Positions 45,901 to 64,000 of a DNA stretch of 64,000 bases are shown in pieces (position 1 is the stretch's first letter; each line of letters begins with the position of its first letter). The stretch comes from Harriotta raleighana. Lineage: Eukaryota. The notes beneath the pieces were generated by a model. The model did not search any database, was not told the DNA's origin, and saw only the letters and a list, made by a program, of their open reading frames with translations. Position numbers and translations under genes: made by a program. Location: positions 2,703,907 through 2,767,906 of the forward strand of contig JBNZDD010013702.1 of NCBI GenBank assembly GCA_050575255.1, given 5' to 3'.

Positions 45901-48900
45901 TACAAACAGCAGAGAGGCTACAGGGCTGCTTATTGGATTCTATTGCTTTCCCTAATAATTTACTTCATCTTGTCAAATGTATTGTTTTGTTTCTGTAATA
46001 CACCAACAAATGGCATTTCACACAGCGCCTTTCATGTCAGGAGGAAGTCCCAAACCTCTTAAGACAGTCAGAGATTTGCATCCGAACTGGGGGTTGGGTT
46101 CCAGAGGTGTGGAGGGCAGGGAGGGAGGTATGGTCGAAGAGGAGGGTCTTGAGATAGGCCTTGAAGGAAGCAAGTGAGTGGGTGAGGAGAAGGGGGGTGA
46201 TTCCAGGAGTCCTGGGCAAAACATACACCTAGTATTATCAATCCTAAAATGCTACCTACGAATTGAAGTTCAACAGAAGTATAGAAAGGCAACTGATGGG
46301 CTGAACAGTGAACAAATTCACCATCGCCGCAAAGCTATGGCTTAGATTTGGATTTGGCCAATTTCCTTTTGCTGTCAGTGTGTTCCCAAGCACACAAGAA
46401 AACCGAGTGTTGTCTCCTAACAATTACAGAACAGACTCTTTGTCTGAAATCTTCAGCTCACAGACTAATAGTACAGCTTGTTTGCCCAAGATTTACAGCA
46501 GACTCTGAGTTTCTTGAATTCTCTCTTGACAGTTTCTCCCCTGGACAGAGGATTGCTGGCTTAGCTCCACATCAACAGACAGTGAAAAGAAGCTTTGGTT
46601 TTACTAAAGCTCTTGTCCAATAATGAGCTTTTAAAACTCTCAATTCCACGATAAAACATGTCTGTGTGACAACACGATTAACTCCCGTGTAATATAACTG
46701 GACAAAACGCTTTTCTTTTTTTAGGATAAAATTGTGAAGGATGAAATACATCAGCTGCGGAAGAAATTGACTGAACAGGAGAGGCTTCTGTATGGCACAG
46801 TCAAACGCCTTCGCACAACAAACCAGCTTAAAGAGGGCATGGAGAAGGCCATCATTGACCAGTGTGAGTAAACGAAAGATGAATAATTGGAGAGCCAACA
46901 TATTTCATTTAAATCTAACAGCCTTGATTGTGTTGCTTAACAAATGAAATCACACGTGTAACGATATTCTTGTTGTACAGCGGGATCAATTTAATGTATT
47001 TTTAACTTTCAACCACTACACCCCAAAACTCTGAAATACTCTTCCTCCATCCCTCTGCCTTGCCCCCTCCTTCCCCACCTTCAGGTTGTGCCTAAAGACT
47101 TTCCTATTTGACCGTGGCCACAGTCACCTCCCTTGTCGTCGTCGTCCGTGTCCCGTTCCCCACCCCCACCCCCGGGTACGGGGTTGTGTTCTGCTCCGGT
47201 CAAATGCTCTGGGATGCTGCCCTGTGAAAGGGACGCTATATAAACACAAGTTGTTGTTACTTTTAAACCAGTTTCTAACATAAACTTCTGTCCTTCTTTA
47301 AAGTGTCGCTGACCCACAATGTCCTGAAGAAGGCTAGAGGAAATCTGGAGGTAAGAACATCTGAAGAAACACAAATCTTTGATAAAACATTTAACACACA
47401 CTGACCGATGCAGAGTTCAGGTGCATTGGAATTCCTCTAAATCAACCCACTCGACTCATTGTAAAGTTGGGAAAGTGGTGCTTTATTTTGACAGAGATCC
47501 ACCTCATCAGATGTGTGTTTGGGCCAATTCTGTGCTGGAAATATTTCCTGAAGAGTAGAATCATAGAATATTACAGCACAGAAGAAGGCCAAGGCCCTTC
47601 GGCCCATCGTGGAAAGAGATACACAATCAGTCCCACTCCCTCGCTCTTTCCCCATAGACTTGCAATTTTTTTTAATCAAATACCTGTCCAATTTCCTTTT
47701 GAAAGTTCTTATTGAATGTGTTTCCACCGCCCTATAAGGCAGTGCACTCGAGACTGTAACTCTTGCCATTTATCTTGAATCTATAGTTTTTCCCTATCTA
47801 CTCCATCAAAACACTGCAGAATTGTGAACGCCTTTATTACATCTCCAGTTAACCTTCTCTGTAAGGTGAACAATCCCTGCTTCTCTAGTCTCTCCACATA
47901 ACTAAAGCCCTCTCATCCCTGGTATCATTCCGGTAAATCTCCTTTATATCCTTTTCAAACTTGGTACAGGGATTTGTGTATTTTCCTATTAAAGTCTGAT
48001 TGCGAAGAGTTTTAGTGCAAAGCTGGTCTCCACCAGAGCCCCCTCCAGCTCCCACTGACCCAGCCTGGTAACAAGGTGACCTCAGTCTTAGCAATATGGC
48101 CATCATCTATTCACAGGTGCTGAGTTCTCCCACATATGTGGTTTCATACAATTATATCTCGGGGATATCTAATGGTGATAATAATCCTTGCATTTAACGC
48201 TGAGTTTGCTTAACATTCTAAGTTGTTTTGAACCTAATGAAATGGTCCTTTTAATTGCAATTTTTTTTTTAAGCATACGTACGAAAAGGCGACAGCTTAG
48301 CTACTTGAGGTTGGGTTTGATATTCTCTCTCTGCTCCCACATCTGCTCATTTCTCTGTGTCTAACAGTGCACGCTTGTGATTGTAAACATCTCGCTTTGC
48401 CTTTTCAAACTTATTCACTTCAGTGTTTTTATTCCTCTTCCTGTCTCCCTCCTCCTCCTCCTCTCCTTCGCCTGAACTGTTGCAGATGAATCATTACATG
48501 GTTTTTGGTCTTAAAGGCTTTCCAAAGCCAAGTGAAGGTTGGTGAAGCATCAATGCTGCATGCTAGTGCCTAGTTCACATCCATTTTAAGATCCTGTTCT
48601 GGGTGGCGTCGGTTGGAGTTGGCTCGATGGCAATTAGCTAAAGATTGCTTTAGAAACCCGCACACCTAGTTTAGAGCCTAGTTTAGAGCCATAAGTACAG
48701 GCACTGTTTAGTGCTATACAGTAACAACAGATGACTCACTGCTCCTTAAAGGCAATGTCAAGTTTTGAACCACACATTGTTTCCATCCTCGAACATGATC
48801 ATTTTAAAAGCGCAGTGAACTTGGCATAAGGAGACTGCATGGCGGGTTAATGGTTGCCGCGTATCTTCCTGTTTTGTTGGCAGCTCGGTGACTGCTGCCA

Positions 48901-49893
48901 GTTGAATTGTGCTGTGTGTGGTTTGAGATTCAGTGAAAGCTGAATCTCCTTTTTCAGCAGGGCATTTTATTTTGTGTTCATCACCGTGCTCAATAACAAC
49001 TTTAATGCAACCAACCAATGCGGTGCGGGTGGGGAGAGGTGGAGGGGAGTGTTGGGGGGAAGAAGGAGTGAAATATTCAACTTGATATTGATGTTCATCC
49101 AATACATTCTCTGTTTGGCAAAATGCAAAGGATCAGGATGACAGTTAAAACTCATAAGTTGCTATCACTCGACAGTTCCACACACCATAATCCTAGCAAC
49201 ATTGACAACTCTGATCGGTTAATTCTAGGCGCCTACATTTGTCATAGTTTTGATGCCAATTCTTAGAATCCACCCACATTAACGGTTAATTTCTATGTGT
49301 TGATCAGGAGTGGCTTTGTCGACTTAACTGAGCAATCATGACGACTTGAGTGTACAGTATCAACATTCATAGTAGGACAGTAAAAGATTGGTGGATTATT
49401 ATTATTTGCGCAGCAAAGAATATATAATCGTTCGAGATGTATACGAACCAACTTGCTGGCTGCCTGGCATAGAGTGAACAGACTGACATCCGTCCTATTG
49501 CTTTGCAAATTTGTGAATTGATTTGCTCACATGCACAGGTACTTGCTCGTTGTATTTCTGTGACATGGTGGAGTTCCTCTCCTGCTTGTGGTGCCCATTG
49601 CAAAACAGTTGGCAAGTTTTCTTTTGACTGGGGTTGTTCGCTGTGTGGTATTTTGTGACTCGCTCGGAAACTCGTATTGATCACTTCATGCCGATATAAT
49701 AACCCGGGTGTCTCTTTTGAGATGGAATTTGATGGAATCTGTTGTTCCTTCTGTAGACACAACCCCCCGATATTCCCCTGGTAAATGGGAACTAATGAAT
49801 CCAGTGGCCCTCGATAACGATTCCAACAGAGATGCTGCCTCGACTTCTGAAGAGAAACACGACTCCTTGACCTCATCACTTTGCAGCTATTGA
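1033..49893 (+). CDS. cdk5rap2: CDK5RAP2-like / myomegalin-family centrosomal coiled-coil scaffold, multi-exon gene, 5' part (CM1) upstream of window
   Basis: About 46 AG/GT-bounded exons joined in consistent phase. CDK5RAP2-like motifs: KAVESLA, EKQNSLKRDKTIQGL, DQTSYLSICL, SRLPI, RYDPLIQSQARDLS, GHRIWEDKNGQHVVGLLEDY, LFWRVSLP and CM2-like LTHNVLKKARGNLE. Also myomegalin-like blocks (DLGYETCGKSE). Orthology versus PDE4DIP or a third paralog is not proven. Confidence 0.8.
1405..1571 (+). CDS. cdk5rap2: exon (DVKTTQAELEK...PEKE)
   Basis: tag|GAT...CA|gtcagt, phase 0 to 2. Confidence 0.8.
1808..1967 (+). CDS. cdk5rap2: exon (LIEDLNEAIKGKDALI...GETE)
   Basis: tag|G...GAA|gtaggt, phase 2 to 0. 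Confidence 0.8.
1993..2280 (-). mobile_element. tRNA-derived SINE
   Basis: reverse complement of family consensus. Confidence 0.7.
2837..2890 (+). CDS. cdk5rap2: exon (ALRGELGNERTRFESDMK)
   Basis: cag|GCA...AAG|gtaatc, 54 nt in frame. Confidence 0.75.
3441..3489. repeat. perfect inverted repeat, 23-bp arms, 3-nt spacer
   Basis: tttcctttgttaaaccatctgta-ttt-tacagatggtttaacaaaggaaa. Confidence 0.9.
3721..4012 (-). mobile_element. tRNA-derived SINE
   Basis: reverse complement of family consensus. Confidence 0.75.
6193..7263 (+). CDS. alternative first coding exon, similar to N-terminus of the EB1-binding myomegalin isoform (CxxC...CxxC, SKIP motif)
   Basis: ATG-initiated 357-codon open frame MKDLCRVCASGLQGNQRRWIF...FLCSKCVFMLEK ending GAG|gtagtt, phase 0, compatible with exon 7578. 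Confidence 0.8.
7578..7712 (+). CDS. cdk5rap2: exon (NLVEKHRQLGQ...DHANK)
   Basis: long pyrimidine tract, cag|AAC...AAG|gtacaa. Confidence 0.8.
7884..8003 (+). CDS. cdk5rap2: exon (ILQEHVEEEK...KRDKTIQGLTLALKAKEKE)
   Basis: tag|ATC...GAG|gtatgt; strong CDK5RAP2-like motif. Confidence 0.85.
8129..8495 (+). mobile_element. tRNA-derived SINE (diverged/variant)
   Basis: tRNA-like head, tgcaaggattatt tail. Confidence 0.65.
8533..8625 (+). CDS. cdk5rap2: exon (IEELCHEIEDRD...QKFQ)
   Basis: cag|ATT...CAG|gtaaaa. Confidence 0.85.
9703..9921 (+). CDS. cdk5rap2: exon (GAEEYQNLL...KGDKAVN)
   Basis: cag|GGA...AAT|gtgagt. Confidence 0.85.
10507..10677 (+). CDS. cdk5rap2: exon (DLRNQLEKLR...KDQLLQ)
   Basis: cag|GAT...CAG|gtgtgg. 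Confidence 0.85.
11834..11944 (+). CDS. cdk5rap2: exon (DYMELAK...KDKALE)
   Basis: aag|GAT...GAG|gtacgc. Confidence 0.75.
12221..12358 (+). CDS. cdk5rap2: exon (QAIDERYAAIDEKE...NEETIN)
   Basis: tag|CAA...AAT|gtaagc; myomegalin-like coiled coil. Confidence 0.85.
12721..12900 (+). CDS. cdk5rap2: exon (SLDSVIKEKD...TTSLE)
   Basis: cag|AGT...GAG|gtaata. Confidence 0.85.
13213..13407 (+). CDS. cdk5rap2: exon (EMTDTLLIK...KDNLFK)
   Basis: cag|GAA...AAG|gtggga. Confidence 0.85.
13675..13972 (+). mobile_element. L2/CR1-clade LINE 3' fragment
   Basis: GGRVFSHYAPKLWNSLP, typical of the L2 ORF2 C-terminus, followed by the ...ggcgctatataaat(gtt)n tail. Confidence 0.75.
14164..14355 (+). CDS. cdk5rap2: exon (EASERYNRKL...KDKIIN)
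   Basis: tag|GAA...AAC|gtgagt. Confidence 0.85.
14715..14850 (+). CDS. cdk5rap2: exon (KLVQRGQE...EEKD)
   Basis: cag|AAA...G|gtaggc. Confidence 0.8.
15440..15585 (+). CDS. cdk5rap2: exon (KLTQHMSGE...ENKAK)
   Basis: tag|CC...AAA|gtaagt. Confidence 0.8.
15715..15831 (+). CDS. cdk5rap2: exon (MEVTRLQS...KDEIIM)
   Basis: cag|ATG...ATG|gtaaga. Confidence 0.8.
16087..16236 (+). CDS. cdk5rap2: exon (GLQARLNASPEVREVEHFTREV...), 3' end uncertain (putative GC donor)
   Basis: cag|GGA; candidate phase-0 donors include GAG|gtgagg (16120) and TGT|gcaagt (16237). Confidence 0.6.
16340..16449 (+). CDS. cdk5rap2: exon (CATPTE...LKAEQQLYSRLIK)
   Basis: cag|TGT...AG|gtaaac. Confidence 0.8.
16908..17047 (+). 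CDS. cdk5rap2: exon (RVQALQMELTAVQLLRQQLEE...RKE)
   Basis: cag|C (or in-frame acceptor at 16914)...G|gtgggg. Confidence 0.75.
20950..21180. promoter_or_regulatory. intronic CpG-rich promoter-like element with NRF1-type motifs
   Basis: local CpG cluster; CGCATGCGCA at ~20998 and GCGCATGCGC at ~21069. Confidence 0.5.
22333..22643 (-). mobile_element. tRNA-derived SINE
   Basis: (taa)n tail through to tRNA-like head. Confidence 0.8.
23873..24025 (+). CDS. cdk5rap2: exon (LHEANLREIEALRHKLEDSQRWN...)
   Basis: cag|CC...G|gtatgt. Confidence 0.8.
24406..24521 (+). CDS. cdk5rap2: exon (DTVTTYGDQTSYLSICLGE...)
   Basis: TACTAAC branch point, cag|GT...ATG|gtaaga; DQTSYLSICL as in CDK5RAP2. Confidence 0.9.
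24673..24816 (+). CDS. cdk5rap2: exon (VIDLQMIVKELQ...)
   Basis: cag|GTT...AAT|gtaagg. Confidence 0.8.
25415..25501 (+). CDS. cdk5rap2: exon (KLEESVKTT...KGM)
   Basis: cag|AAG...ATG|gtagga. Confidence 0.75.
25556..26130 (-). mobile_element. nested SINEs (full copy ~25643-25950 inside an older copy)
   Basis: outer copy is interrupted after ...gaatatact and resumes at gtgaattgactg. Confidence 0.7.
26501..26901 (+). CDS. cdk5rap2: exon (TVSKVDKSMQTSP...AELR)
   Basis: NAGNAG acceptor aagcag|...AG|gtacgt. Confidence 0.8.
27256..27715 (+). CDS. cdk5rap2: exon (TEIGRLRSE...GFNPELIVNMAMEIEHLK...SAT)
   Basis: cag|G...ACA|gtaggt. Confidence 0.85.
28165..28399 (+). CDS. cdk5rap2: exon (VSTRSRLPIALKQ..., SxLP EB1-binding motif)
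   Basis: cag|GTC...G|gtaagc. Confidence 0.85.
28895..29011 (+). CDS. cdk5rap2: exon (EVQVDFQDLGYETCGKSE...)
   Basis: tag|CT...G|gtagat; myomegalin-like motif. Confidence 0.85.
29956..30655 (+). CDS. cdk5rap2: large exon (TASHLPG...AATSPAR)
   Basis: cag|AC...AG|gtatcg; 700-nt open frame. Confidence 0.85.
31118..31350 (+). CDS. cdk5rap2: exon (YDPLIQSQARDLS...LDNG)
   Basis: cag|A...G|gtatgc; family-conserved motif. Confidence 0.9.
31873..31924 (+). CDS. cdk5rap2: exon (EMSSVGGDHTFLNMAQ)
   Basis: cag|GG...AG|gtaagc, phase 1 to 2. Confidence 0.75.
34665..34802 (+). CDS. cdk5rap2: symmetric (phase 2-2) exon (PRSLQHEILYLRKQL...)
   Basis: tag|T...CA|gtaagt; coiled-coil character. Confidence 0.7.
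35434..35731 (+). mobile_element. tRNA-derived SINE, near full length, inserted in an L2-like tail fragment
   Basis: A-box/B-box head (TAGTGGTTAGAGC...GTTCGAATCC), family core tgtgggac(g/a)ctgctgtgcgca, tail tgcaagga(tta)n. Confidence 0.8.
36072..36304 (+). CDS. cdk5rap2: exon (LTKEVQEKNK...SQDSD)
   Basis: cag|A...G|gtactt. Confidence 0.8.
37339..37651 (-). mobile_element. tRNA-derived SINE
   Basis: family consensus on minus strand. Confidence 0.8.
38915..39186 (-). mobile_element. tRNA-derived SINE (5' truncated)
   Basis: family consensus on minus strand. Confidence 0.75.
40109..40435 (+). CDS. cdk5rap2: exon (AGSQVPAQ...LSAA)
   Basis: cag|TG...G|gtatga. Confidence 0.8.
40972..41097 (+). 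CDS. cdk5rap2: exon (LLAEHLHEIRSLRERLDESIRNNDRLR...)
   Basis: tag|AT...G|gtgatc. Confidence 0.9.
41681..41797 (+). CDS. cdk5rap2: exon (STNIFIHGSEE...MRGSR)
   Basis: cag|CT...G|gtaagt. Confidence 0.85.
42211..42400 (+). CDS. cdk5rap2: exon (KQRENEKLKESLSKK...)
   Basis: cag|AT...AG|gtattg. Confidence 0.85.
42742..42863 (+). CDS. cdk5rap2: exon (LERELALQ...VELRVYEQL...)
   Basis: cag|G...G|gtattt. Confidence 0.85.
42879..42940. repeat. (CA)31 microsatellite
   Basis: direct observation. Confidence 0.95.
43212..43469 (+). CDS. cdk5rap2: exon (DLSELLTEIRNLRIHLEHSIQTN...)
   Basis: cag|AA...G|gtaaga. Confidence 0.85.
44097..44132 (+). CDS. cdk5rap2: possible 36-nt cassette exon (VEAGRSDPAGD)
   Basis: cag|AT...G|gtaaag, phase 1-1. 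Confidence 0.5.
44265..44510 (+). mobile_element. L2-like LINE reverse-transcriptase fragment fused to a tail
   Basis: translates as INLSLSTGTVPTLLKSAIINPILKKPSLDPSLLSSYR, typical of L2 RT. Confidence 0.7.
44729..44994 (+). CDS. cdk5rap2: exon (GHRIWEDKNGQHVVGLLEDYSALRKLISEG...)
   Basis: cag|GA...AAG|gtaaag. Confidence 0.9.
45039..45357 (+). mobile_element. tRNA-derived SINE
   Basis: same head, core and tail as the 35434 copy. Confidence 0.8.
45753..45899 (+). CDS. cdk5rap2: exon (LLEEAGCILKLFWRVSLP...)
   Basis: cag|GAG...CCG|gtacaa. Confidence 0.9.
46725..46863 (+). CDS. cdk5rap2: exon (DEIHQLRKKLTEQE...AIIDQ), CM2 region
   Basis: tag|GAT...T|gtgagt. Confidence 0.9.
47304..47350 (+). CDS. 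cdk5rap2: exon (SLTHNVLKKARGNLE), CM2 motif
   Basis: aag|TG...GAG|gtaaga. Confidence 0.9.
47557..47960 (-). mobile_element. CR1-like LINE 3' fragment
   Basis: IRTFKRKLDRYL-type C-terminus plus tail ending (ttctatga)-like; related pieces at ~20330-20490, 41849-42000, 29440-29560. Confidence 0.6.
48486..48537 (+). CDS. cdk5rap2: putative 52-nt penultimate cassette exon (MNHYMVFGLKGFPKPSE)
   Basis: long pyrimidine tract, cag|ATG...G|gttggt. Confidence 0.55.
49757..49893 (+). CDS. cdk5rap2: terminal coding exon (stop at 49893 if 52-nt exon included, at 49795 if skipped)
   Basis: ttccttctgtag|AC; AATAAA at 50000-50005. Confidence 0.65.
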
Positions 49894-51728
49894 AAAAATA
49901 ACTATTTTTAAATGCCCATATTGTGTTTTTTTTAATTAAACTGATTTGAGCTTTTTTTTGCACAAGCTGAGTGCAGAGTGAGATCTGCATGTCTTGTCAA
50001 ATAAAACCTCCTCAAATACTTTGTGAAGCACTTCACACTCTGAATGGTGTGTAGCTGTGATTTCAGATGTTACCTTAAAAAGAGTGACATGAGTTAAAAA
50101 AAAAGGGATTTGTGATTCAAATGGGATTGTAGGAATGGTGTTAAACCAGCTAAAATATTTGTTTCTTTTTTTAAAATGCAGACTTTCAGCAATATTGAAA
50201 CTTTTCTGACCTCTGTTAAAATAGTTTTAGAAGTGTGCCTCTGTACATTCCCTCAATTCTATATGTAGACTGTAAAAAAATCATTTTGTAAATAATAAGG
50301 AGGCGTGTGTGTGTTTGCTGCATGATTTGTTTTATTCTGTACTGTATAATGTCTCTTGTGGCTGTTGAGATGCATGTTTTAACAGGAGATAATGGTAAAC
50401 TGCCTTGCCCTCAAACTGCTCATTAATCTCCTGAAATGTTCCCATTTATGTTTATTGTAAAGAATTCTTGCAAGTGATTGCAAAGTGTGAAAAGGGGCCT
50501 GTCTGCCTTACTGTACATTTTTCTGGAATGTATGGACCTCAATCAATGTTCTTTATTTTTCTTAATACATTTTTATATTGTCATTGAACTTGTCATCCAT
50601 TTATTTCTTGATATTTATTCATTAGTATTGCCTCTGAACATATTTCAGGCAGTAGCAGACATAAATAACCAACACCATTTTAATTAATCTTGAATTGAAT
50701 GCTGTGATCTAACTCTGAACGAGTCTGAACTACACAGAAATTCTCATACATTTCTGGTATCGTGCTATCCAACAGTGTTAAGGTATGTAAACATGGTCAG
50801 GATTATATCACATTTATTTACAACACTTGGCATTTCGCACACAAATGCTTGTAATTTGTACTTTGTGTTTATTGCACTGCTGCCCTGAATGTCGTCCAGT
50901 AATGCGGAACCTGAGAGAACTGCTTCCTATAAACGGAGTCAACAAAGGGAGACTGAGCAGAGTTCTCTCAGGTCAAATCTAAATTGGATGTAATTCCAAT
51001 TTTCTTATTAAGAAATTAATAAGGAAATTGGAAATTGCTGCTTATTTGACCCCAATAACTTGCTATTAAGCAGTTCACAATCTAAGCTAACAAAATAGCT
51101 TGTAACTTAACGGTTACATGATGTGAAGCGCTCTGAGACGCCGTCCGGCGTGGAAGGCGCTATATAAATTCAACTTGTACGTGTACAGTTTAAATGCTTC
51201 AGTTTTCATGAAGGTCTAATTAAGTGCATGTTAGGTTTAATTTGCTAAAAAAAAAATAATGATATGACACTTGACTGACCCAGCACAAGGACAAAAATTG
51301 GCTGTTGATCATATTCAGATGTGTTGTATAAATCTTGGAATGCTTTGGAGTAAAAGATGTGTCTCGAACAGCATCACTGGGGGAAAGGCCATTTTACATC
51401 AAATACTTATGAGATTTTCATTGCTAAAGTTTATAGACTATTCAACTGATTTGCTTCAAATGCGGTCTATAAAAATCCACTTAATGTGGACCTTGGTTGT
51501 CTTCTCAAGTAGGGATTGAAAAATCACAGGATCATAATAAATATCAGATATGCAGGATTGTATGTAGCCTTTTGCTTTCAATTGAATCAAGCACAGAGTT
51601 GCTAAGCAACATTTATCGAAACAGCATCTCTCTGTCTTTGATGTGCTGAGGATACCCTTCGGCAAGACCTAGTGAAGCAAATATCAATTAGGAAGAACAG
51701 ACAGGGAGAGACTTGCCGGCCATTTTAG

Positions 51729-51832
51729 TCAATCTTTGAGCGCAAGAGCAGCCATTTGAATCTTTTCATTCAGTTGCTCTGGAGATTTCAGCAGTTCTGT
51801 TAAGCTGTTTCGAGGCATCTCAAGCAGCATAC
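51729..51832 (-). CDS. 4xMLLE gene last coding exon (GMLLEMPRNSLTELLKSPEQLNEKIQMAALALKD*)
   Basis: ctctgtag|GT...TGA. Confidence 0.85.
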
Positions 51833-54800
51833 CTACAGAGAGGACGCAATACATTAATGCAAGCAGTTTGGGCAACGAACAACTCTCATTTAGAACGAAT
51901 GGGTAATTATGATGGAGGAGGAGAGGATACTTGGATACACTGATAAGGAGGAAAGAGTCTTTGGAAGACCATTCTGGGGGAAGGGGAGGGGGTGAAATTA
52001 GGAGAAATGAGCATTAGCCCAGAATCAGACGCCACTTTGACTACATGAATAACAATAATAATCCTTGCATTTGATATAGTACTTTTCACATTCTCTAGAC
52101 ATCTCATAGCACTTAATTTTTTCATTAAAGAGTCGTGGCCCCATTGTTTCAGTGATCCAAATTACCTTTGTGCTCAGTTTAGCCAACCCTTCACCATCTC
52201 AGTTTATCTACACTTTGCTCCGACGACCACAACAACTTGCATTTATATAGCAACGTTCACAACATGTAGCTCCTCAGACCTCCGACAGGGGATCAAACGC
52301 AAGAACAAAGGTCAGTGAGGAGACAATATCAATGCTGTAAGCAGATATCACATCACTGTATTCCCACCCAGTGTCTCTTCCACACCTTAAAAGTTCCGAA
52401 TGCACAATCAATCCACTATCTTTCACTAAATTCATACCTGTTATCTTGCTTGAATGCTCGCTGTATTGTGTGTTGTTGATGTAGCAGTATAGCTCCTCGC
52501 CCAGCCTTTCTGTCTCACTGTCCGTCTCGCTCCTATCGTTGCGAATCAACAAGCCAGGTGGAAGGCAAGTGGCCGAATTCAGCAGCGCTATCTGCGCTTG
52601 CTCCACTGCAGTCTGTAGCGCTAGTCTGTCAGTCAGCAACTGCTGTACAGTAGAAACTTTCATCTCTAACAACATGCCTGAAATAAAAATGAGTGGGGCT
52701 AAAATATAGGGTATATTTAGTTTTGAGGGTTACACCGTTGATTTTTTAAAAAATCTGGATGTTGGTTTACTGTTCCTAAAAACTGGTTTCCCAATTAAGG
52801 CTGATATTAAGAATGACCACAATTTCACACAACCTTAAATTCTAAGACACTGATAATTTGCACTTGGATAGCACTCTCCACACATCTAGCAACACTTAAC
52901 ACTTAACCTGACAAAATAAGGTACTTTTGAGACATCTCAAGTCCCAGCATATCCCTCCATCAAAGTTTATCCCTCCATCATCGCTTCTTTGCTCTGATTG
53001 TGCTTGGAGTTCAGATGACCTGAGTGTTGGGATAATCCGGTAGATCTATTGCTCTCAATCCATATTCCGTGAAAAACAATCAAAGATTCCTCTCACCAGT
53101 GATGTTCGCACAGTTCTGTCGGTCCATCTTCTCTACCTCTGCAAAAATCTTCTCTCCCAAACTCTCCTTCACATCAACAAATTCTGAACATTCGGAAGTC
53201 GGCCCGTTGTCTGGCAATGCTCTGCACACGGAAAGACGTTTCAAATGTTTCATTCCTGCTCTGAAAGCAGGGCATTGCAAGAGGTTTTCATTCAAATTCA
53301 AAAGGGTCCTGACATGCTCATAAGTCGAAGGAAATGTTCAAAGAGTTTACTTAACCAGTAACCTGGCACAACATCCTGTTCCAGCAATTCAAGACATCGA
53401 ATTCCTAATCACATACACAGGCAACGCTTAAGGTAATGTTAGCTTGGACCTAAAACACCTGTTCAATTTTCAATCACATCACCCCTAAAGCAATCGTCAA
53501 TTTTAAGCCATTGTGTTGACATTTGCAATCCACTGCTATTTCATAAGTAGCGTTGCTATTTTCAACTTGAGATGAATGAAGCTCTAGGATAGAGTACTGT
53601 ATATAAAGTTTTGATTTTCACCCTTGGCTATGTTGGGTTGATAACAACAATAGCGCCTTTCACTTGAATACACTTGANAGACAATATCAATGCTGTAAGC
53701 AGATATCACATCACTGTATTCCCACCCAGTGTCTCTTCCACACCTTAAAAGTTCCGAATGCACAATCAATCCACTATCTTTCACTAAATTCATACCTGTT
53801 ATCTTGCTTGAATGCTCGCTGTATTGTGTGTTGTTGATGTAGCAGTATAGCTCCTCGCCCAGCCTTTCTGTCTCACTGTCCGTCTCGCTCCTATCGTTGC
53901 GAATCAACAAGCCAGGTGGAAGGCAAGTGGCCGAATTCAGCAGCGCTATCTGCGCTTGCTCCACTGCAGTCTGTAGCGCTAGTCTGTCAGTCAGCAACTG
54001 CTGTACAGTAGAAACTTTCATCTCTAACAACATGCCTGAAATAAAAATGAGTGGGGCTAAAATATAGGGTATATTTAGTTTTGAGGGTTACACCGTTGAT
54101 TTTTTTAAAAATCTGGATGTTGGTTTACTGTTCCTAAAAACTGGTTTCCCAATTAAGGCTGATATTAAGAATGACCACAATTTCACACAACCTTAAATTC
54201 TAAGACACTGATAATTTGCACTTGGATAGCACTCTCCACACATCTAGCAACACTTAACACTTAACCTGACAAAATAAGGTACTTTTGAGACATCTCAAGT
54301 CCCAGCATATCCCTCCATCAAAGTTTATCCCTCCATCATCGCTTCTTTGCTCTGATTGTGCTTGGAGTTCAGATGACCTGAGTGTTGGGATAATCCGGTA
54401 GATCTATTGCTCTCAATCCATATTCCGTGAAAAACAATCAAAGATTCCTCTCACCAGTGATGTTCGCACAGTTCTGTCGGTCCATCTTCTCTACCTCTGC
54501 AAAAATCTTCTCTCCCAAACTCTCCTTCACATCAACAAATTCTGAACATTCGGAAGTCGGCCCGTTGTCTGGCAATGCTCTGCACACGGAAAGACGTTTC
54601 AAATGTTTCATTCCTGCTCTGAAAGCAGGGCATTGCAAGAGGTTTTCATTCAAATTCAAAAGGGTCCTGACATGCTCATAAGTCGAAGGAAATGTTCAAA
54701 GAGTTTACTTAACCAGTAACCTGGCACAACATCCTGTTCCAGCAATTCAAGACATCGAATTCCTAATCACATACACAGGCAACGCTTAAGGTAATGTTAG

Positions 54801-57473
54801 CTTGGACCTAAAACACCTGTTCAATTTTCAATCACATCACCCCTAAAGCAATCGTCAATTTTAAGCCATTGTGTTGACATTTGCAATCCACTGCTATTTC
54901 ATAAGTAGCGTTGCTATTTTCAACTTGAGATGAATGAAGCTCTAGGATAGAGTACTGTATATAAAGTTTTGATTTTCACCCTTGGCTATGTTGGGTTGAT
55001 AACAACAATAGCGCCTTTCACTTGAATACACTTGAATAGCGTCTTTCACGTCAGGAGGACGTCCCAAGGCGCTGGACAGTCACTGCTTCAGACCCAAGCT
55101 GAGGAATGGTGGGGGAGGGAAGGGGGGGATTAGGAGTTTCAAAAGAGCAGCGTCTTGAAGCGAGACTTGAAGGAGGCCAGGGAGTCACTATCCAGAGCAC
55201 AAATTACAATTGAAAGTTTTTTTTAAAAAGAACTCTGTGTTAAACCAATCCATATTTACTGTTCAATGGCTCGCCAAGCAACGTGAATCTGTTGTTCCAA
55301 TAACTGCTCATCACAGACCAATCGCTTCACTTCCTCCCTGCCCAATTCCAGCAGCATCCCTGTGGAAACAAATGAGGCCTGTGAGTGAGTCTCTGGTGGG
55401 TGCAATCAGCTGCCCTGTTTTAGCCACAAAATACAGTCACTGCACTTTGTAGCATATTCTGTGAAGCGCTTTGAGATGTTTCGATGACACGATGAGGCGC
55501 TATGTCAAATGCCAGGATTATTATTATTACAGGAAACTTTCGAAAGAACAGCACTCGGAAGAATGGCAGATTCGAGCTAACGGAGTTATGAAAATTTGAA
55601 AGAACGGCATCACTCAATTCCCGAGGGTGTTATTCCTTCAAACGTTTACTATACTTATTATTATAGACGATAGGAAAGTCTAATAAACTAACCAGTTATT
55701 TTCTCGCTGTGTCCAGTGTTATGGATATCGACCAGGTCATAGAGTTGATCCCCCAGTGAATCGGTAGAATCCGAATCCATATTATCTTGCTCACTTTTAG
55801 ATACACCGAGAAGCCAAACAAGATACTGTTTACTTTTCCTCATAGGCACAAAAACAACAACAGCAACAACTTTGATTTATATAGAGCCCTTTGCACCTAT
55901 ATCTCGATATCTCAGAGCGCTTCAGAATTAACGCTGCCAATACATTTTGCTCCAAATTAACTGCATTGATACAGAGGTAATTTTATTCATATCAGAAAGA
56001 AACACATGTTATTAATATCCTAAATCATGTTATACAGATACTGATCAGCAATATCAGTCCCTCGTTAATACAAAAAGATCTGAACAGATTTGATCTCTTA
56101 CTTTATTCCAAGTTTGCTTTGAACTCAGCCTTATCCCTCACTTCTGCCAATGCCCCCTAACTCATTGAAATATTGTGGAACATCATTCTGCCAATATACT
56201 GTATGAAGAAAAATAATGTTAAGGATGGACAGCATTCAGCGATTAGCACTTAATAGGAGAAGGGTACTGTCTTAATATCAATTTCATGGTGGCAATATTT
56301 TAAATGATAGGACTTTCCTTCCTCCTCCATAAATATTATAGATTTATATACTGGAATATAAAACTAAGAACTTTCCCCACCACCCACCACCCCCCACCAC
56401 CATTCCATTCAGCAGGCTCCAGCCAGTTCCACGTCCCCCACCCATCCCGCTCTACTATTAGCGCACGGGCTTTCAGCCTCTCTGCCCCACACTCTGGAAC
56501 TCCATCCCACAGTCCCTTCGCCTCACTCCCTCCCTCACCTCCTTCAAAGCCGGTCTCAAGACCCTCCTCGTCGACCATGCCTTATGCTGCCCTCCCAACT
56601 CTCTCCCTCTCCTCCACTCCCCCCTATACTACTCCTCTCCGTTGCTCAGGCCCTGACTGTTCAGCGTCTTTCCAGACGTGAAAAGGGCTCTATGAATGCA
56701 ATTTTGTTGTTGTTGTTGTTGTAAATGCATTACACTCGTGTTTAACCACATAACTGCTCTGCACTGTGTTTTTTGTGATGTCTTACCATTTTTCTGTTGA
56801 TAACTGAAGTGCGCTGAATGCTTTGTCCAGGGCAGTGGCCAGCAGTTTCTCATCATGGACCATCTGTTCCAACACAGGAACTGGCAGCTCCAACAGCATC
56901 CCTGTAAGAGGCTCGGAACAAAAGGATTAATGAGTTATTCAGCCCATAGGAATGCAGACAGTTATAACAGTGGAACTCAATGATCTGGTGGAAATAGCAA
57001 CAGAATCGTATTGACACAAGTCAACACACAGGTACATCCACTTTACAATATATTCTGCGGAGTGATAAGGCCTGAGGTTACAGGTGTGATAAGGCGTTAA
57101 TTATCAAATGCAAGGATTATTATTAATATTATCTTTCACATCAAAAATAAATATCTCAAAACATCTACCTAAGCATTCATGTCAACATTTCAGAGTTTTG
57201 AATCAAAAAGTGTTACTATTCCAAGGAGTGATCCAATCAATCTAGCCAATGTTATCACATCATTGTCATTTTAGGAATTCTCATCAAAAAGTGCTTCGCT
57301 CAAATTCACAATTTTTGGAGGTTGGCTTTGGATATTCACCGCGAAGAAGAATGTAAATGTCATATGACTGTACCTGTAAGTTTTCCAGCCGTTTCTGGAT
57401 GGTCTGGAACAATGACATTGTAAAGCTTTTCCCCCAGCATGTTCAGTTGCTCAGATAAATCGTTCTTATCCAT
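51729..57473 (-). CDS. uncharacterised ~307-aa protein with four tandem MLLE (PABC) domains, 7 coding exons
   Basis: Exons 57473-57374, 56901-56787, 55793-55693, 55359-55260, 54618-54455, 54035-53796, 51832-51729 all have canonical AG/GT ends and join in frame. Four LG(E/D)x(L/I)(Y/F)...(K/N)(I/L)TGMLLE signatures. Confidence 0.85.
53796..54035 (-). CDS. 4xMLLE gene exon (GMLLEMKVSTVQQLL...LGEELYCYINNTQYSEHSSKITG); duplicate copy at 52438-52677
   Basis: tttcag|GC...G|gtatga. Confidence 0.85.
54455..54618 (-). CDS. 4xMLLE gene exon (...KESLGEKIFAEVEKMDRQNCANITG); duplicate copy at 53097-53260
   Basis: tttcag|A...G|gtgaga. Confidence 0.8.
55260..55359 (-). CDS. 4xMLLE gene exon (GMLLELGREEVKRLVCDEQLLEQQIHVAWRAIE)
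   Basis: ccacag|GG...CA|gtaaat. Confidence 0.85.
55693..55793 (-). CDS. 4xMLLE gene exon (EQDNMDSDSTDSLGDQLYDLVDIHNTGHSEKITG)
   Basis: aaag|T...G|gttagt. Confidence 0.8.
56400..56722 (+). mobile_element. L2-like LINE 3' fragment in 4xMLLE intron
   Basis: ARAFSLSAP-type degenerate C-terminus plus (gtt)n tail. Confidence 0.65.
56787..56901 (-). CDS. 4xMLLE gene exon (GMLLELPVPVLEQMVHDEKLLATALDKAFSAL...)
   Basis: ttacag|GG...TG|gtaaga. Confidence 0.85.
57374..57473 (-). CDS. 4xMLLE gene coding exon 1 (MDKNDLSEQLNMLGEKLYNVIVPDHPETAGKLTG); exon begins at 57604 with 5'UTR
   Basis: in-frame TAA immediately before ATG; donor G|gtacag; acceptor ttattacag at 57605. Confidence 0.8.
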
Positions 57474-58479
57474 TTAAATCATGCGTCACAACTGAGGAGG
57501 CTGCAGGACTTGCGTGTGAATTGCACAGTGCCCTCATCAAGCTTGTCCTGTACTCAAGACATCATTGGAACATACAGATTCCTTCTTCAGCAACTGCAAC
57601 AGCGCTGTAATAAAAAAAACTCAGCCTAAATAATATGCATTGAAATTTTTCAGGGACACACAAAATGATAATGGTTTACAAATGTAATCCAAGCTTTCGT
57701 CCCGTGTTTAAACTGCTCATTATGGATGTAAAAGTGTCAGTGTGTGGGGCGGGGGAGGGAGGGGGGATGGGATGGAAGAGACGAAAGCAAGTCATATGGG
57801 TGGAACGAGTATCCAGACCAGATGTAACATGAAAGTCCGTGGCTGTCAAATTGGTGTCCAGATCAGTCTGGATGAAGAAAGCCTTTCAGGCCATCTGATC
57901 TCATCCCTCCAGAATTCTCCCTCCCCCACCTACCCCAACACCTATATTCATCACAGCATCGAGCTGCTTTTTAAATGAGTACCAGTGGCCTGGCCTTTAT
58001 GACATTTCCTGTCAATCCAGTCGTTAATTACCCTCTGGGTACAGAAAACTTTCCTGATGTCTGTCCTAAAATTACCCTTTACAGCTTTAAACCTCTGTCC
58101 TCTTGTCCTACTGTCACAATGATGTTGTAAAGTAATCGCCTGGTCTATCTTAATATTAATTATTACTACTTTTATATTAATAATTATTATTATTACTATG
58201 GTTCAGGCATTGCTCCTGGAGCTCCTGTGGCTCAGTGGTTAGAGCACTCGCCTTACAAGCCTTACAAGTGTGAGACTTCATTTTGTNGTGAAAAGCGCTA
58301 TATCAAATGCAAGGATTATTATTATTATTATTGCTGATGTTCCGATTTGCCAGCGGAAAAATAAAACGATTCCCCCCACATTGGGCTAATTTCCTAATTT
58401 GTCCAGACATTACTGACACATTCCTGCAGATTAATGCTGACTTTTATATAGTATTATTATATGTGACTCTGTTTTACTG

Positions 58480-59520
58480 TATGATATTAATCAAGAGCAG
58501 CTCACCCACAGCAGCGTCGCTCACTGATGACATCATTCGCGGCGCGTCACCTCCAACGTCACCTAGCCTCCTCGCTCTCCCCGAGCTCCTTCCGAGGGAA
58601 TGAGAAAATAGTCCCGTTATCCCAGAAAAGACAACGGCCCCGCGCCGGGGGCCCTGGGGAGGGGCTGGGGGGCTGGGGGGGGGGGGCAGGGGAATAACGG
58701 TTAGATTTTTTTCAAAAAGAATAAAAGATGATAATAAGAAAGCGGTTGGAAGTGGAGGTGACTTGGTGGGAGAAGGTGGTGGGGGGGTGAGGCGGAGGGA
58801 TCGGGCGGCACGCGGAGGGTGGTCAGGCGGTCTCTCACGCGGCTTCTTCCTTTGCTCGTGGCGCCCGGAGAGAGACAGTCAGACAGTCAGTCAGTCAGTC
58901 ACACACACAGGTACCTCAGCCCGGCCCGGCCCCAGCCCAGCCCCGGCCCCAACAAACTTCATCCCCGGCACTGGGTAACCCTCAGCTCAGCCTCTCCCCC
59001 CCCCCCCCCACCCCTCCTCCGGCTACAGCCGTCACTCCCCCCCCCCCCCNCCCCCCCCCCCCCCCCCCCCCCCCCAAATCCCCAAATCCCCAATCCAGCC
59101 CCACGGTCCCGAAACCCTCAGAAGCTTCAACTCAGCCTCACACACGAGGCCTCACAGGGCGAGGTCAGGAGACTTCACCCGGGTTTAGGCCTCACTGTGC
59201 CGGGCAACGTCAGGCGGGAGGAGCGAGGCCTTAAATACAGGGGGGAGTGTGTGTGTGTGTGGGGGGGGGGGGGGTGAATAAGCCCCCAGCGGGTCCTCTC
59301 CTCCCTCCTGAAGCCGAGCTGTATTCCGGGCTGGGGACCCGCGGCTGAGGCCCGGGTTTGGCTTGCGGCCTGGCCTGGCTGTCAGGAGCGAGGCCTTCGC
59401 TTCTTTGCTTCCAATTTTTTATATTATAATAATTTATATCTTGTATAATTGATATCTTTCATAAACAGATTCCCGATCAGATCTCGCCGGGCCAGGGAGG
59501 GTTGGTCTTTCTAATCGTGC
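58480..59520. promoter_or_regulatory. CpG island / bidirectional promoter between the 4xMLLE gene (-) and rpl28 (+)
   Basis: GC- and CpG-rich against an AT-rich background; CRE-like TGACATCA/ACGTCA and GGAAGT motifs; minus-strand donor gtgagc at 58505; rpl28 TOP start at ~58843. Confidence 0.7.
58843..58910 (+). promoter_or_regulatory. rpl28: rpl28 non-coding first exon starting with 5'TOP tract CTTCTTCCTTT
   Basis: pyrimidine initiator typical of ribosomal protein genes; donor cag|gtacct at 58911. Confidence 0.65.
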
Positions 59521-59541
59521 TCAGAAAATATTCATACATTT

Positions 59542-59670
59542 NNNNNNNNNNNNNNNNNNNNNNNNNNNNNNNNNNNNNNNNNNNNNNNNNNNNNNNNNNN
59601 NNNNNNNNNNNNNNNNNNNNNNNNNNNNNNNNNNNNNNNNNNNNNNNNNNNNNNNNNNNNNNNNNNNNNN
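59542..59670. other. assembly gap (N run) in rpl28 intron 1
   Basis: run of N. Confidence 0.99.
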
Positions 59671-60045
59671 TTTGCTGCTGACAGACTGGAATTCAAACCC
59701 CAAACCCGGCTGAGCCCTGGTGCATTTTACTCTCCTGCCNCCCCCCCCCCCCCCCCCCCCCCCCCCAACACACACAAAAGGTGAGGAGCAATGGAATAGG
59801 CTCCCTCGGGAAGCAGCCACTTTGATTCTTCCAAAAGCAAATGAGTTTAAGATTTATTTTAGGGAATGCTGTCCTCAGGATAACAGTATCTAGATATCTA
59901 GGCCTTGGTGTGTGTGTGTGACTGAATTCCAGACTGCATGGAACCTGGTCTTCTTTAGTCTTCAGCAAATTCTTGTGTTCTTTATGAGCTCATCTATTGA
60001 CTGACTCTTGGTTTTTCTTTTCCTTTCGGGTTTAGGTGATCGAAA

Positions 60046-62358
60046 ATGTCGGCTCACTTGCAGTGGATGGTCATCCGTAACTGCTCCAGTTTCCTCATTA
60101 AAAGGAACAAGCAGGTCTACAGCACCGTAAGTGCCCACTGGAGGGTTCGGACACAAACTATTGTTAATAATAATTCTTTACATTTGATACAAAGCCTCGA
60201 TTTAGCCCATAAAATATTCTGTGTGGCGCTTTGAGACGTCTCAATGATGTGATAACTGAATGCCTATATCGAATGCAAGGATTATTTTTCTTGTCGCATC
60301 TTCGGGACTTGGCATTGCATTTAGTGGGATCTGCTGTAAAGTGATTGAGTGACTGCATTTTGTGTATCAAGACCACATAAATTTTGAAGGGGTTTAGTTG
60401 CACGGATGTTATCTGTGCCCCGTATGTTTCAAAACAAACTGCATCTATGACAAAAGATAATAATATAATAATCCTTGCATTTGATATAGCGTTTTTCACA
60501 TCTTATCGACATCTCAAAGGGCTTCACAGAATATACTATAAAGTGAATTGACTGTATATTTGTGGGTGAAGATGTATTGGAGATCCTTCCATCATGTTCA
60601 CTAAAAGAAATTAGACAATGCCCGACTTCATTAAAGTGTACGTTTGTTGTCTTCTCCAGCTCTCCACAAAGAACTGGAGATTTTTGCTCTATGCTAGAAT
60701 TTTAGATGTGTATCCACTGTTTTAGTTAATAATAAGTTGATAGAATGGCTCAGTTTGAGATTGGGGATTTCATGATTGAGAAGCTGTGATTGCAGTGACA
60801 ATACTAGAGTTACATCTGCAATGGTATTTTTTTTTTGCCTTGAATTTCACTGGATCATTCTTCTTACTTAGGAGCCCAACAATCTCAAGGCCAGGAACTC
60901 CTTCCGTTACAATGGGCTTATCCACCGCAAAACTGTGGGTGTGGAGCCAGCAGCTGATGGGAAAGGGATTGTTGTAGTCCTCAAAAAGCGAGCAGGTAAA
61001 CTGATCCTATCAATCCTGCTATTCAGTCTCTTCATCTGCTCTTTATTTTTGTGTGTGCAACACATCTGATCTTTACTGCAGCCTTAGGTGATTCTATCTG
61101 CCTAGCCAGGTTCTGAGTTATTTGCCCTTTCATTTCTCTGTACCACACACCAGTATGGGAGTAACCTGCTATCTGATATAGATTAGATGTAGAACTTCTT
61201 TAATGTTTTCCCCTTCTGGAGTAACATCTTTTTAGATCCTTTGCCATTGCAGCACAGACTCTAAAATCTTGAATGACAATGTAACTGAATCAATGGGTCA
61301 CTGTTTTATTCAGGTTGCCTTTTGTTTTAACATGACCTATAACAAGTTACACATCTCATTTAGGTCAACGCAAACCAGCAACGTCCTATGAGAAGATCAC
61401 TGTGAATAAGAATGCCCGTGCCACCCTCAACAGTTTGAGACACATCATCCGCAAGAATAACTACAGACGGGACCTTCGCATGGTATGAGAGCTGGTTGTT
61501 TGCTGTGATCAGTTGTATAATAACTAATATAAAGGAGTTGTGCCATATCAATAACTGAAATGTACTTCACATATGACTATTAGCAACTTGTTGGTAAATT
61601 AATGCCACCTGTTCCTGTTTGATTGTTGCACTTCTTTAAAAAAAATTCCATCTTATAATAATAATAATCCTTGCCTTTGAAATAGCGCTTTACACATCTT
61701 CTAGAGGTCTCAAAGCACTTCACAGAATATACTGTAAAGTGAATTGATTGTATATTTGTGGGTGAAACGCGGCACAATTGGGCACAGCAGCGTCCCACAC
61801 AACCAGTCGTGGATTGAAAATGACCAATTTATTATAGGGTTTTTTTTTAATGGATTATTATCAGGCTTTGGAGTAAGGAAACTTGCCCAAGGTTTCGCCT
61901 GACCTGTCTGGATTCGAAACACAAGTCTCACACTTCTAAGGAGAGTGCTCTAACCACCGAGCTATAGGATTTTGACTTTTTTTTTTTTAAAGTACTTCTG
62001 AGGCTAGTTCAAGTTACATGTAGGACTCTGAATAAATGGTGAGGAATTTAAGTGGGAATATGGGGGACTGAATGTTGGGNTAAGGAGAGTGCTCTAACCA
62101 CCGAGCTATAGGATTTTGACTTTTTTTTTTAAAAAGTACTTCTGAGGCTAGTTCAAGTTACATGTAGGACTCTGAATAAATGGTGAGGAATTTAAGTGGG
62201 AATATGGGGGACTGAATGTTGGAAATGTCACATTGGTCCTCAAAAATTATGATTTGTTTTACTTTCAGGCTGCAATCCGACGTGCTAGCGCTATTCTGAA
62301 GAGTCAGAAACCAGTTGTTGTCAAGAAGAAACGCACCAGGACTGCCAAGAGTGCATAA
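60046..62358 (+). CDS. rpl28: 60S ribosomal protein L28 (eL28), 137 aa; exons 60046-60126, 60872-60995, 61364-61482, 62269-62358
   Basis: [59 protein letters not shown]...[36 protein letters not shown]; canonical splice sites; AATAAA at 62381. Confidence 0.97.
61657..61970 (-). mobile_element. tRNA-derived SINE in rpl28 intron
   Basis: family consensus on minus strand. Confidence 0.8.
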
Positions 62359-64000
62359 CTGTCGCAGTTTCACATGGTTTAATAAAAAAGGAAGATTTAT
62401 GTAATTCTGTCTAGTCTCTTTGCTGAGATCGTATTTGTAAATTTTGGTAATACATTTTATGAACCTTCAAAAAGAACTGCTCAAAGCTATTAATTCTTGC
62501 ATTCGTTATAGTGCCTGTGATGTTCCCAAAGGCTTCACAGGATTCAAATATATAGCTGGCCATTTACCTTTGAGTTAGATTAGGATACAGTGGGTGATGT
62601 GTTGCTCTTAAGGCTTTAAGAGCTGGCGATCTACAGGTCTAATTGGAACAACAAGAGCAATCAAGCCTGGCTCATTAGTAAAAGCCAATTTTAAGCTGAC
62701 CCAAAGAGATTGGTATAATTCTAGTGAGAAGAGCAGAAAATATTAATTCTGAATCTTCACACAAAGTTATGTAATGCATTAACAGAAATTTCTAATATAC
62801 CATTTTATATTTCATGATAATTTTTTTCCAACTGCTCTGAACTCTTTAACAGCTCTTATTTTGACATGAATTATTGGCATGAATCCTTTGTGGGCAGTTG
62901 TATTTCTACTCCAAATATTTTTGAAAGGGAACATTTTGTGTTTGATTGAATAGATGAACCGTCAGCAAATCCACAGTGTTTCAATCTTAAATGATTCAGT
63001 CTATCTTTAGTGTACAGCAGAACATGATATACATTATGCCACATAACACTTGTATTTTATCACATTGTTCAGATGTCACCCAGCATTTCACAAACATATT
63101 GTAAAGTGGATTGATGTTTGTTGTACCGCAGTCACTCCTAAACTCTGGATATATAACTTGCCTAAAAGACTAACAGGTTACAGTACTTTGAATTGTAAAA
63201 GTGTTGGCTTACATTCTCAGGTATCTATTAACTCAGTGTTTCAAGTCTGGTCAGTTGCTCCATTCAGTTCCCCTCTCCACACAGCTTGGACTCATGCTGG
63301 TTACGTGAGTTAAATTCAACTAAGACACTGACATTGACTATAGGTTATGTATTGTAAATTACTTCAACAAAGTACAAAAAAGGTAGACTTGTTGCACAAC
63401 TTAATTTGTTTCCATGCAGCACCCTTAGATGACCACATGAGGGAACCAAAGCAACGTCTTAATTAAATACCTAGATACAGTGCAGATACTGTGGTAAGTG
63501 GTCTGTCACATTGTAGATTTCAGGTGTGCTAGATATCAAATTGGGACAATTTACAAAATTAAAGCAATGTCATAGCCCACTCTAAAGGGGGCAATGCTGT
63601 TTGCAGGGATGCTCAGTATATAATCCATGCAAATCTAGAGCGATTTGTTAGTTACGTTGGGTGACAAGTGGCAGATCTTTATTGCTGAATATGTGAGGAC
63701 TCACAAGCGAGGGGATCCGAACAGGGTGAAACCAGGCAAGTTTCCTTACTGCTAGTGAGTAACTGTTTACTCGTTTCAGTCGATTTACCCAGCATTGAGT
63801 AGGAATCTGATTGGCAGATTGCTTTTCCATGGGGTATTAATCCCATGAATAAAATAAGAATTTGGTCACTCAATGCATGACTGTTTGTGGGAACACTGCA
63901 GTATGCAATTGGCTCCCCACAAATTATTCAGTCAATCATTTAGTGTATTCTGTGAACTGCTTTGACGTTTTGAAGACAATAAAGCGCTTCATCAAATGCA

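Follow-up and report, generated by a model that had tools for sequence, protein, structure and literature searches.

A stand-alone protein of four tandem MLLE domains encoded in the genome of Harriotta raleighana, with orthologues among fishes

What does an MLLE domain do in a protein that consists of nothing but MLLE domains? Known MLLE domains are peptide-docking modules, and the question is raised by a minus-strand gene in a 64,000-nucleotide (nt) stretch of the Harriotta raleighana genome (GenBank assembly GCA_050575255.1, contig JBNZDD010013702.1, positions 2,703,907 to 2,767,906 of the forward strand; hereafter 'the window', in whose numbering all coordinates are given). An initial annotation, made from the sequence alone, joined seven exons between 51729 and 57473 into an open reading frame (ORF) of 307 amino acids (aa) and described it as a hidden gene for a free-standing protein of four MLLE domains. 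We find that the four-domain architecture holds, that orthologues occur widely in fishes, and that the protein is best read as a putative multivalent adaptor for peptides carrying PABP-interacting motif 2 (PAM2). The exons have AG acceptors and GT donors at their splice sites; spliced together they amount to 924 nt (307 aa and a stop codon), and an in-frame TAA lies immediately 5′ of the ATG:

57374..57473, minus strand: coding exon 1, with the ATG and the first half of MLLE repeat 1 (PF00658, E 1.8e-6)
56787..56901, minus strand: coding exon 2, second half of repeat 1 (PF00658 match)
55693..55793, minus strand: coding exon 3, an acidic linker followed by the first half of repeat 2 (alignment to the orthologue would start it at 55805, with GG in the acceptor position)
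55260..55359, minus strand: coding exon 4, second half of repeat 2 (PF00658 match)
54455..54618, minus strand: coding exon 5, a linker followed by the first half of repeat 3 (alignment to the orthologue puts the acceptor at 54579, 39 nt into the initial exon)
53796..54035, minus strand: coding exon 6, in which an acidic linker joins the second half of repeat 3 to the first half of repeat 4 (PF00658, E 9e-8, two stretches)
51729..51832, minus strand: coding exon 7, the rest of repeat 4 followed by the stop codon (PF00658, E 3e-6)

All seven exons match the MLLE profile PF00658, alternating between its N-terminal half (profile positions 5–34) and its C-terminal half (36–66). Three of the seven pass the curated Pfam cut-off alone, and PF00658 is the best family for six, exon 2 giving a tie at E 0.12 with an LRV match. 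The intron that splits each domain lies at an identical place in all four repeats, inside the glycine of TG-MLLE. When full-length orthologues were scanned with Pfam, five of the six showed four MLLE stretches (165–201 bits), and no other family exceeded the cut-off in any of the six. The tandem array proposed initially is thus borne out, as is its free-standing character. None of the six orthologues has an RRM, so the four N-terminal RRMs of the cytoplasmic PABP family are absent; the same scan found neither the UBR-box and HECT domains that surround one MLLE in UBR5/HYD nor, RRMs being missing, the combination of RRMs and a C-terminal MLLE triplet seen in Rrm4-type RNA transporters. Upstream exons encoding an RRM or HECT domain are ruled out by the in-frame stop before the ATG and by orthologues that begin at the same place. 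Fused forms were also absent among longer proteins (140–2000 aa; 15 matches of 97 candidates), an observation that counts for little. The genome's UBR5-type MLLE sits on a different contig. In all three PABPC loci of this genome the TG-MLLE motif is uninterrupted by an intron, and the UBR5 locus also differs in intron position, from which we conclude that the gene is not a recent PABP fragment.

The closest database protein is from Callorhinchus milii (88% identity to the Harriotta protein, 89% on exon 6), and comparison with this 298-aa orthologue revises the gene model. Aligned to it, the initial 307-aa model gives 17 gap columns, with 13 residues too many in exon 5 and four too few in exon 3. 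Moving the exon-5 acceptor 39 nt downstream, to the AG at 54579, yields 294 aa and four gap columns; starting exon 3 at 55805 as well yields 298 aa, no gaps and 263 identities. The exons, GT-AG sites and open frame of the initial model stand, but its exon-5 acceptor is probably misplaced by 39 nt, giving a protein of 294–298 aa, and its exon-3 start is doubtful: either the AG 12 nt downstream is used in the Harriotta raleighana genome, or the GG at 55805 is a base error or variant. The gene is present at one locus only in the 1.1-Gb genome.

How widely such a protein occurs was addressed with word-seeded searches, in which we considered the best 120 of 410 relatives found with the Callorhinchus query and the best 120 of 143 found with a lungfish query. 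Among the matches listed, four-domain forms come from chimaera, sharks, rays, coelacanth, lungfish, bichir and sturgeon; in the alignment, the fourth repeat is partial in gar, and the proteins of bowfin and teleosts stop at the end of repeat 3. Some annotated isoforms are without half of repeat 1. Logan contigs of 1,345 and 1,775 nt (P0032, P0033) carry complete ORFs, 74–77% identical to a ray protein, from which we infer spliced transcripts in rays. No named match from a tetrapod, lamprey or hagfish was found among the best 120 of 410 and the best 120 of 143, and none of 174 unnamed or representative matches had coelacanth or lungfish as its best match. This pattern suggests that the MLLE-only gene was lost in tetrapods, within searches that leave 290 and 23 further matches outside those considered and of which the lungfish search missed a bichir protein found by the Callorhinchus search. 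Each repeat is far closer to its lungfish or coelacanth counterpart (30–41 of 56–57 positions identical) than to its sister repeats (17–21 of 56–57); the repeats have therefore been kept distinct since before the split of sharks and bony fishes.

Relatives extend beyond vertebrates. A profile search of 1.84 billion representatives returned 55 proteins at E≤1e-30, and most of 58 proteins scanned with Pfam have three to six MLLE stretches and no other family. Among 20 clusters looked up (six without a name), MLLE-only members with four domains occur in amphioxus, with four to six in Acropora and Pocillopora, and with three in Saccoglossus, Acanthaster, Lytechinus, Anneissia, Holothuria, Patella, Babylonia and Lymnaea; no arthropod or nematode was among them, and three of the 20 represent other architectures or expansions (a long Babylonia protein, an Octopus PABP4-like protein and a plant F-box fusion). 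Repeat number varies, from three to five or more. The ESM Atlas contributed MLLE clusters only, mostly chordate.

Hidden Markov models (HMMs) built for each vertebrate repeat place the middle repeat best on vertebrate repeat 3 in every one of the eight named invertebrate proteins with three domains and, over all 42 three-domain matches, in 31, whereas the first and last invertebrate repeats match vertebrate repeats 2 and 4 in only four of the eight each; the four-to-six-domain coral proteins gave no consistent repeat-by-repeat mapping. In a careful tree (68 domains, 62 columns), one clade (support 96/85) unites vertebrate repeat 3 and the middle repeats of the invertebrate proteins; it also takes in repeats 1 and 3 of amphioxus and two third repeats from gastropods. 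Constraining the 27 vertebrate repeats to one clade costs 25.5 log units and is not rejected by the approximately unbiased test (p-AU 0.085). A first, quick tree (178 rows) had separated PABPC/UBR5-like domains with a support of 90 in the Shimodaira–Hasegawa-like approximate likelihood ratio test (SH-aLRT), a group not resolved in the 68-row tree. The three- and four-domain MLLE-only proteins of amphioxus, acorn worm, echinoderms and molluscs are probably related to the vertebrate family, with a vertebrate-only origin not rejected at the p-AU given above, and the family is likely of bilaterian origin. The initial annotation did not recognise an MLLE-only tetramer in vertebrates. Such a protein is indeed undescribed in the literature searched, but it is not peculiar to one lineage, being spread over fishes and probably invertebrate bilaterians.

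Some coral-type multi-MLLE proteins (P0308 from Acropora, P0154, P0159) begin with MG followed by small residues, which we take to resemble an N-myristoylation signal; such a signal would tether an MLLE platform to membranes. Other multi-MLLE fusions (P0166, P0199, P0190, P0169, P0143) carry a PHAX RNA-binding domain, a Cid1 PAP-associated domain, MIF4G with RRMs, or a plant F-box.

An AlphaFold2 model of the Callorhinchus orthologue, made from a 26-sequence alignment, has a mean predicted local distance difference test score (pLDDT) of 85.6, a predicted template-modelling score (pTM) of 0.34 and 16 helices, four per repeat, with low-confidence linkers at residues 74–81, 146–155 and 227–232. 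The predicted protein is a row of four independent four-helix bundles on flexible linkers, without fixed orientation. The best Foldseek matches are the MLLE structures of PABPC1 and UBR5 (1i2t and 3ntw for UBR5), with a root-mean-square deviation of ~1 Å over 59–65 columns and target template-modelling (TM) scores of 0.8–0.9; no match reached E≤0.001, the best being 0.06 or weaker, because one domain covers only a fifth of the query.

We mapped the PAM2-contact residues given in the available part of PMC2854688 onto the repeats, using as guides the TGMLLE motif and the PABPC exons of the same genome, over a panel of 14 lineages (seven for repeat 4). G563, E/D564, F/Y567, T582, L586 and E587 are kept in 12–14 of 14 lineages in repeats 1–3 and in six or seven of seven in repeat 4; M584–E587 and the phenylalanine pocket (G563, E564, F567, T582, L586) are nearly exceptionless across all repeats. 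The nine pocket columns have a mean conservation of 0.94–0.99, against 0.62–0.72 elsewhere, and pocket residues of PAM2 type are also conserved in a set of 197 proteins. E609 is mostly replaced. In Rrm4 MLLE1 and MLLE2, loss of a glycine accompanies loss of PAM2 binding (available text of PMC9249222); this pocket glycine, which we map to G563, is present in all four repeats. The usual PAM2 partners are at hand, with 18 matches to PF07145 in the genome, 14 of them over the cut-off. A complex prediction for the Callorhinchus orthologue and a 41-residue PAM2-bearing stretch from this genome, which we take to be eRF3-like, scored 0.00 with the alignment unused, and we count it neither way.

Given that four MLLEs, each constrained in its own way, stand in one chain that has no RNA-binding part, we read the protein as a multivalent adaptor that would dock several mRNA-turnover and translation factors simultaneously through their PAM2 or PAM2-like motifs, without RNA contact, a reading to which we give slightly more than an even chance. 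In this scheme a conserved, acidic four-MLLE protein would act as independent beads on flexible linkers, each repeat docking PAM2 or PAM2-like motifs with a preference of its own. Such repeat-specific preference would let the protein bridge PAM2 proteins (TOB, PAN3, PAIP1/2, eRF3, ataxin-2, LARP4, GW182 or MKRN-type partners) or hold them away from, or beside, poly(A)-bound PABPC. The outcome would be a tuning of deadenylation, translation or granule assembly.

Several observations weigh against this proposal. Q560 is replaced in all 49 panel cells, mostly by D or E; G579 is retained in repeat 1 only and replaced throughout repeats 2–4; K580 is lost from repeat 3 in all 14 lineages; and K606 is replaced in most of repeats 1–3 and invariant only in repeat 4. 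The F567A/K580A/L585A mutant of PABPC1 abolishes PAM2 binding (available part of PMC11347130), and given the loss of K580, repeat 3 may not bind canonical PAM2. Conservation of the pocket is inflated, since several of its residues are also fold residues. The protein has a net charge of −30 and an isoelectric point of 4.45, unlike a site tuned for acidic PAM2 peptides. Finally, valency is not fixed, because repeat 4, the most canonical one, has been lost in teleosts, and half of repeat 1 is absent from annotated isoforms. We infer that the repeats differ in ligand preference, repeat 4 being nearest to PABPC1 and repeat 3 furthest from it. The suggestion in the initial annotation of a PAM2 scaffold or PABP decoy thus survives in part: the PAM2-type pocket is conserved in all repeats, but the repeats are unequal. 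A scaffold with tuned sites is favoured over four equal PAM2 sponges because repeat 3 is without K580 and repeats 1–3 are without K606.

The same inequality bears on a simple decoy, a soluble MLLE sponge that would titrate PAM2 proteins from PABPC, without bridging, and so give longer poly(A) tails or damp microRNA silencing or stress granules. The lack of any RNA-binding or enzymatic domain and the variable repeat number are as a sponge would have them, and stress granules need the PABPC1 MLLE–PAM2 contact according to the available part of PMC11347130. However, a sponge would be served by identical high-affinity copies, whereas the residues and order peculiar to each repeat persist across the whole jawed-fish tree and the middle repeat is recognisable even in molluscs and echinoderms; we consider a decoy unlikely. 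If instead the repeats worked like the UBR5 MLLE, they would read PAM2-like motifs in the UBR5 HECT domain, MKRN1 or substrates, and the protein would control ubiquitylation rather than poly(A) tails. The modelled four helices per repeat fit this, as the MLLE of UBR5 and MLLE2 of Rrm4 lack the first helix of PABPC1 (available text of PMC9249222), as do the partners that differ between UBR5 and PABPC1 MLLEs (available text of PMC11572963) and the name 'hyd' given to teleost members in some databases. But by sequence, PABP structures match better (E 5e-9 to 1e-6) than UBR5/HYD (E 7e-4 and 8e-4), the intron position is unlike that of UBR5 and there is no ubiquitin-related domain, which makes a ubiquitin-pathway adaptor improbable.

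We give equally little credence to an MLLE fold redeployed for non-PAM2 ligands, such as basic peptides of ribosomal or chromatin proteins, in an acidic chaperone co-expressed with rpl28. All nine family members computed are acidic (net charge −13 to −37), Q560 has become D or E, K580 or K606 is lost, the acidic Ser/Thr linkers are conserved, and in this genome the gene stands head to head with rpl28; on the other side, the phenylalanine pocket and TGMLLE helix are conserved as in PABP, and the rpl28 linkage is known from this genome only. A mis-assembled or decaying set of PABP fragments has a negligible probability. The assembly is duplicated at the locus and one orthologous acceptor reads GG, but the frame is open, identity to the Callorhinchus protein is high, orthologues exist in all jawed-fish groups, the gene has a single locus and its intron position is not common to the genome's PABPC or UBR5 genes; the conservation refutes this explanation.

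The acidic Ser/Thr linkers that precede repeats 2 and 4 lie directly before helix 2 and are strongly conserved in the orthologue alignment. They presumably resemble casein kinase 2 sites, and their phosphorylation could gate the pocket.

The MLLE–PAM2 contact is a hub at which eRF3, deadenylase adaptors, PAIP1/2, ataxin-2, LARP4 and GW182 compete for poly(A)-bound PABP. In fishes, a Danio species among them, a conserved MLLE-only protein would bring into this hub a competitor or organiser that does not depend on RNA, and probably also in sea urchins, starfish and molluscs, which are classic systems for maternal mRNA control. Tentatively, and at somewhat less than an even chance, we suggest that the MLLE-only proteins are an ancient fourth MLLE class in animals besides PABP, UBR5 and fungal Rrm4: an RNA-free scaffold dating from the bilaterian ancestor, or perhaps from the divergence from corals, that would organise PAM2-type regulators of the poly(A) tail through repeats of differing specificity and was lost toward land vertebrates. 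If true, this loss means that work on mammals would never have met the class. The Harriotta raleighana protein is small, single-copy in this genome and predicted to be soluble, and in its four diverged pockets it offers a natural series from which the binding code of MLLE domains could be read.

The surroundings of the gene contain the following further features:

60047..62359, plus strand: coding exons of rpl28, the divergent neighbour (Ribosomal_L28e, E 2e-9 on 60872–60994)
58400..59400, no strand: GC-rich, CpG-enriched stretch, putative shared head-to-head promoter
ending at 58506: candidate non-coding exon, ending before a GT
57474..57604, minus strand: putative 5′ untranslated part of exon 1, starting after an AG
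52321..53677, no strand: 1,357-bp duplicate carrying exons 5 and 6, with one mismatch to 53679–55035 across the single N at 53678
51241, 50873 and 50818 (50813..51241), minus strand: candidate polyadenylation hexamers
6175 to ~50000, plus strand: large myomegalin/PDE4DIP-like gene (370-codon exon 6175–7284; SMYLE_N, E 5e-7)
L016:1670–2257, minus strand, beyond the window: phosducin-family gene downstream of rpl28 (PF02114, E 5e-86)

The Ribosomal_L28e match agrees with the initial placement of the gene next to rpl28. The two are head to head, with the GC-rich, CpG-enriched stretch between them, and the MLLE-repeat gene is tail to tail with the myomegalin/PDE4DIP-like gene; this reading of gene neighbours covers the Harriotta raleighana genome. 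The 370-codon exon of the latter gene has at its start a zf-AD zinc finger below the cut-off (E 0.001). The putative 5′ untranslated region of the MLLE-repeat gene contains five upstream ATGs; one starts a two-codon ORF with its stop right against the main ATG, another a 23-codon ORF that overlaps the main ATG, and these may limit translation. An Rfam scan of 45000–64000 found only a weak tRNA-like match (45042–45112, plus strand, 32 bits), which lies within a ~320-bp repeat with many copies in the window and is probably the head of a tRNA-derived short interspersed nuclear element.

We read the second copy of exons 5 and 6 as an assembly overlap artefact, because four of the seven single Ns in the window are flanked by duplicates (138, 101, 1,357 and 143 bp), because PABPC loci elsewhere in the assembly have the same N-flanking duplicates, which create false exon duplications, and because inclusion of both copies stops the frame at residue 276. 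Near-perfect tandem duplicates of 100–1,357 bp recur alongside single Ns across the assembly, at 29576, 33339, 53678 and 62080 in the window and at loci L003 and L005. Five or six MLLE repeats in the Harriotta raleighana gene are ruled out, the extra exons 5 and 6 being a duplicate beside a single N that breaks the frame.

As to prior description, the gene is not hidden as first claimed. RefSeq and UniProt already predict orthologues (for example UniProt V9KYV4 and RefSeq LOC103184661, LOC102356072 and LOC122790988), named 'uncharacterized' or 'PABC domain-containing', or mislabelled 'polyadenylate-binding protein' or 'E3 ligase hyd'. The supposition that the protein was undescribed holds: although the domain is known and the orthologues are predicted, the literature searched contains no description of an MLLE-only family and no mention of six LOC identifiers of orthologues, most subscription papers and supplements, whose expression tables may list the genes, being outside its scope. 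In the available parts of PMC3018788 and PMC4174440 we found no test of a free MLLE domain. As far as the available text of PMC9249222 (2022) goes, MLLE domains have been described, PABP aside, in UBR5 and Rrm4-type proteins only, and that of a 2025 review (PMC12852828) names two human MLLE proteins and no further class.

Several MLLE copies per chain are also found in the Octopus PABP4-like protein, the plant F-box fusion and the RRM- or PHAX-bearing proteins, but those copies are near-identical or PABP-like and group together or with PABPC, as independent and more recent expansions. With PABPC1 and its paralogues the new protein has in common PF00658, the TGMLLE helix, the phenylalanine pocket and a model overlay of ~1 Å; unlike them, it has no RRMs or proline-rich linker, three or four MLLE domains in the family instead of one, four modelled helices per repeat and an intron in the TG-MLLE glycine, and Q560, G579, K606 and E609 are mostly replaced. 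It resembles UBR5/HYD in the four-helix form of the MLLE, a weak sequence match and the structural match to 1i2t and 3ntw, but lacks UBA, UBR-box and HECT domains, is repeated and free-standing, and differs in intron position. MLLE domains discriminate among PAM2 and PAM2-like motifs, and those of UBR5 and PABPC1 differ in partners (available text of PMC11572963). Rrm4 of Ustilago maydis, with three C-terminal MLLEs, offers a tandem platform whose domains likewise differ in their ligand pockets (available parts of PMC9249222, PMC11572963 and PMC12852828). Rrm4 has three RRMs, and just one of its MLLEs retains the pocket glycine, whereas in the new family an RNA-binding domain is lacking and every repeat retains that glycine. 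By analogy, the MLLE-only protein likely works in the manner of the MLLE platform of Rrm4.

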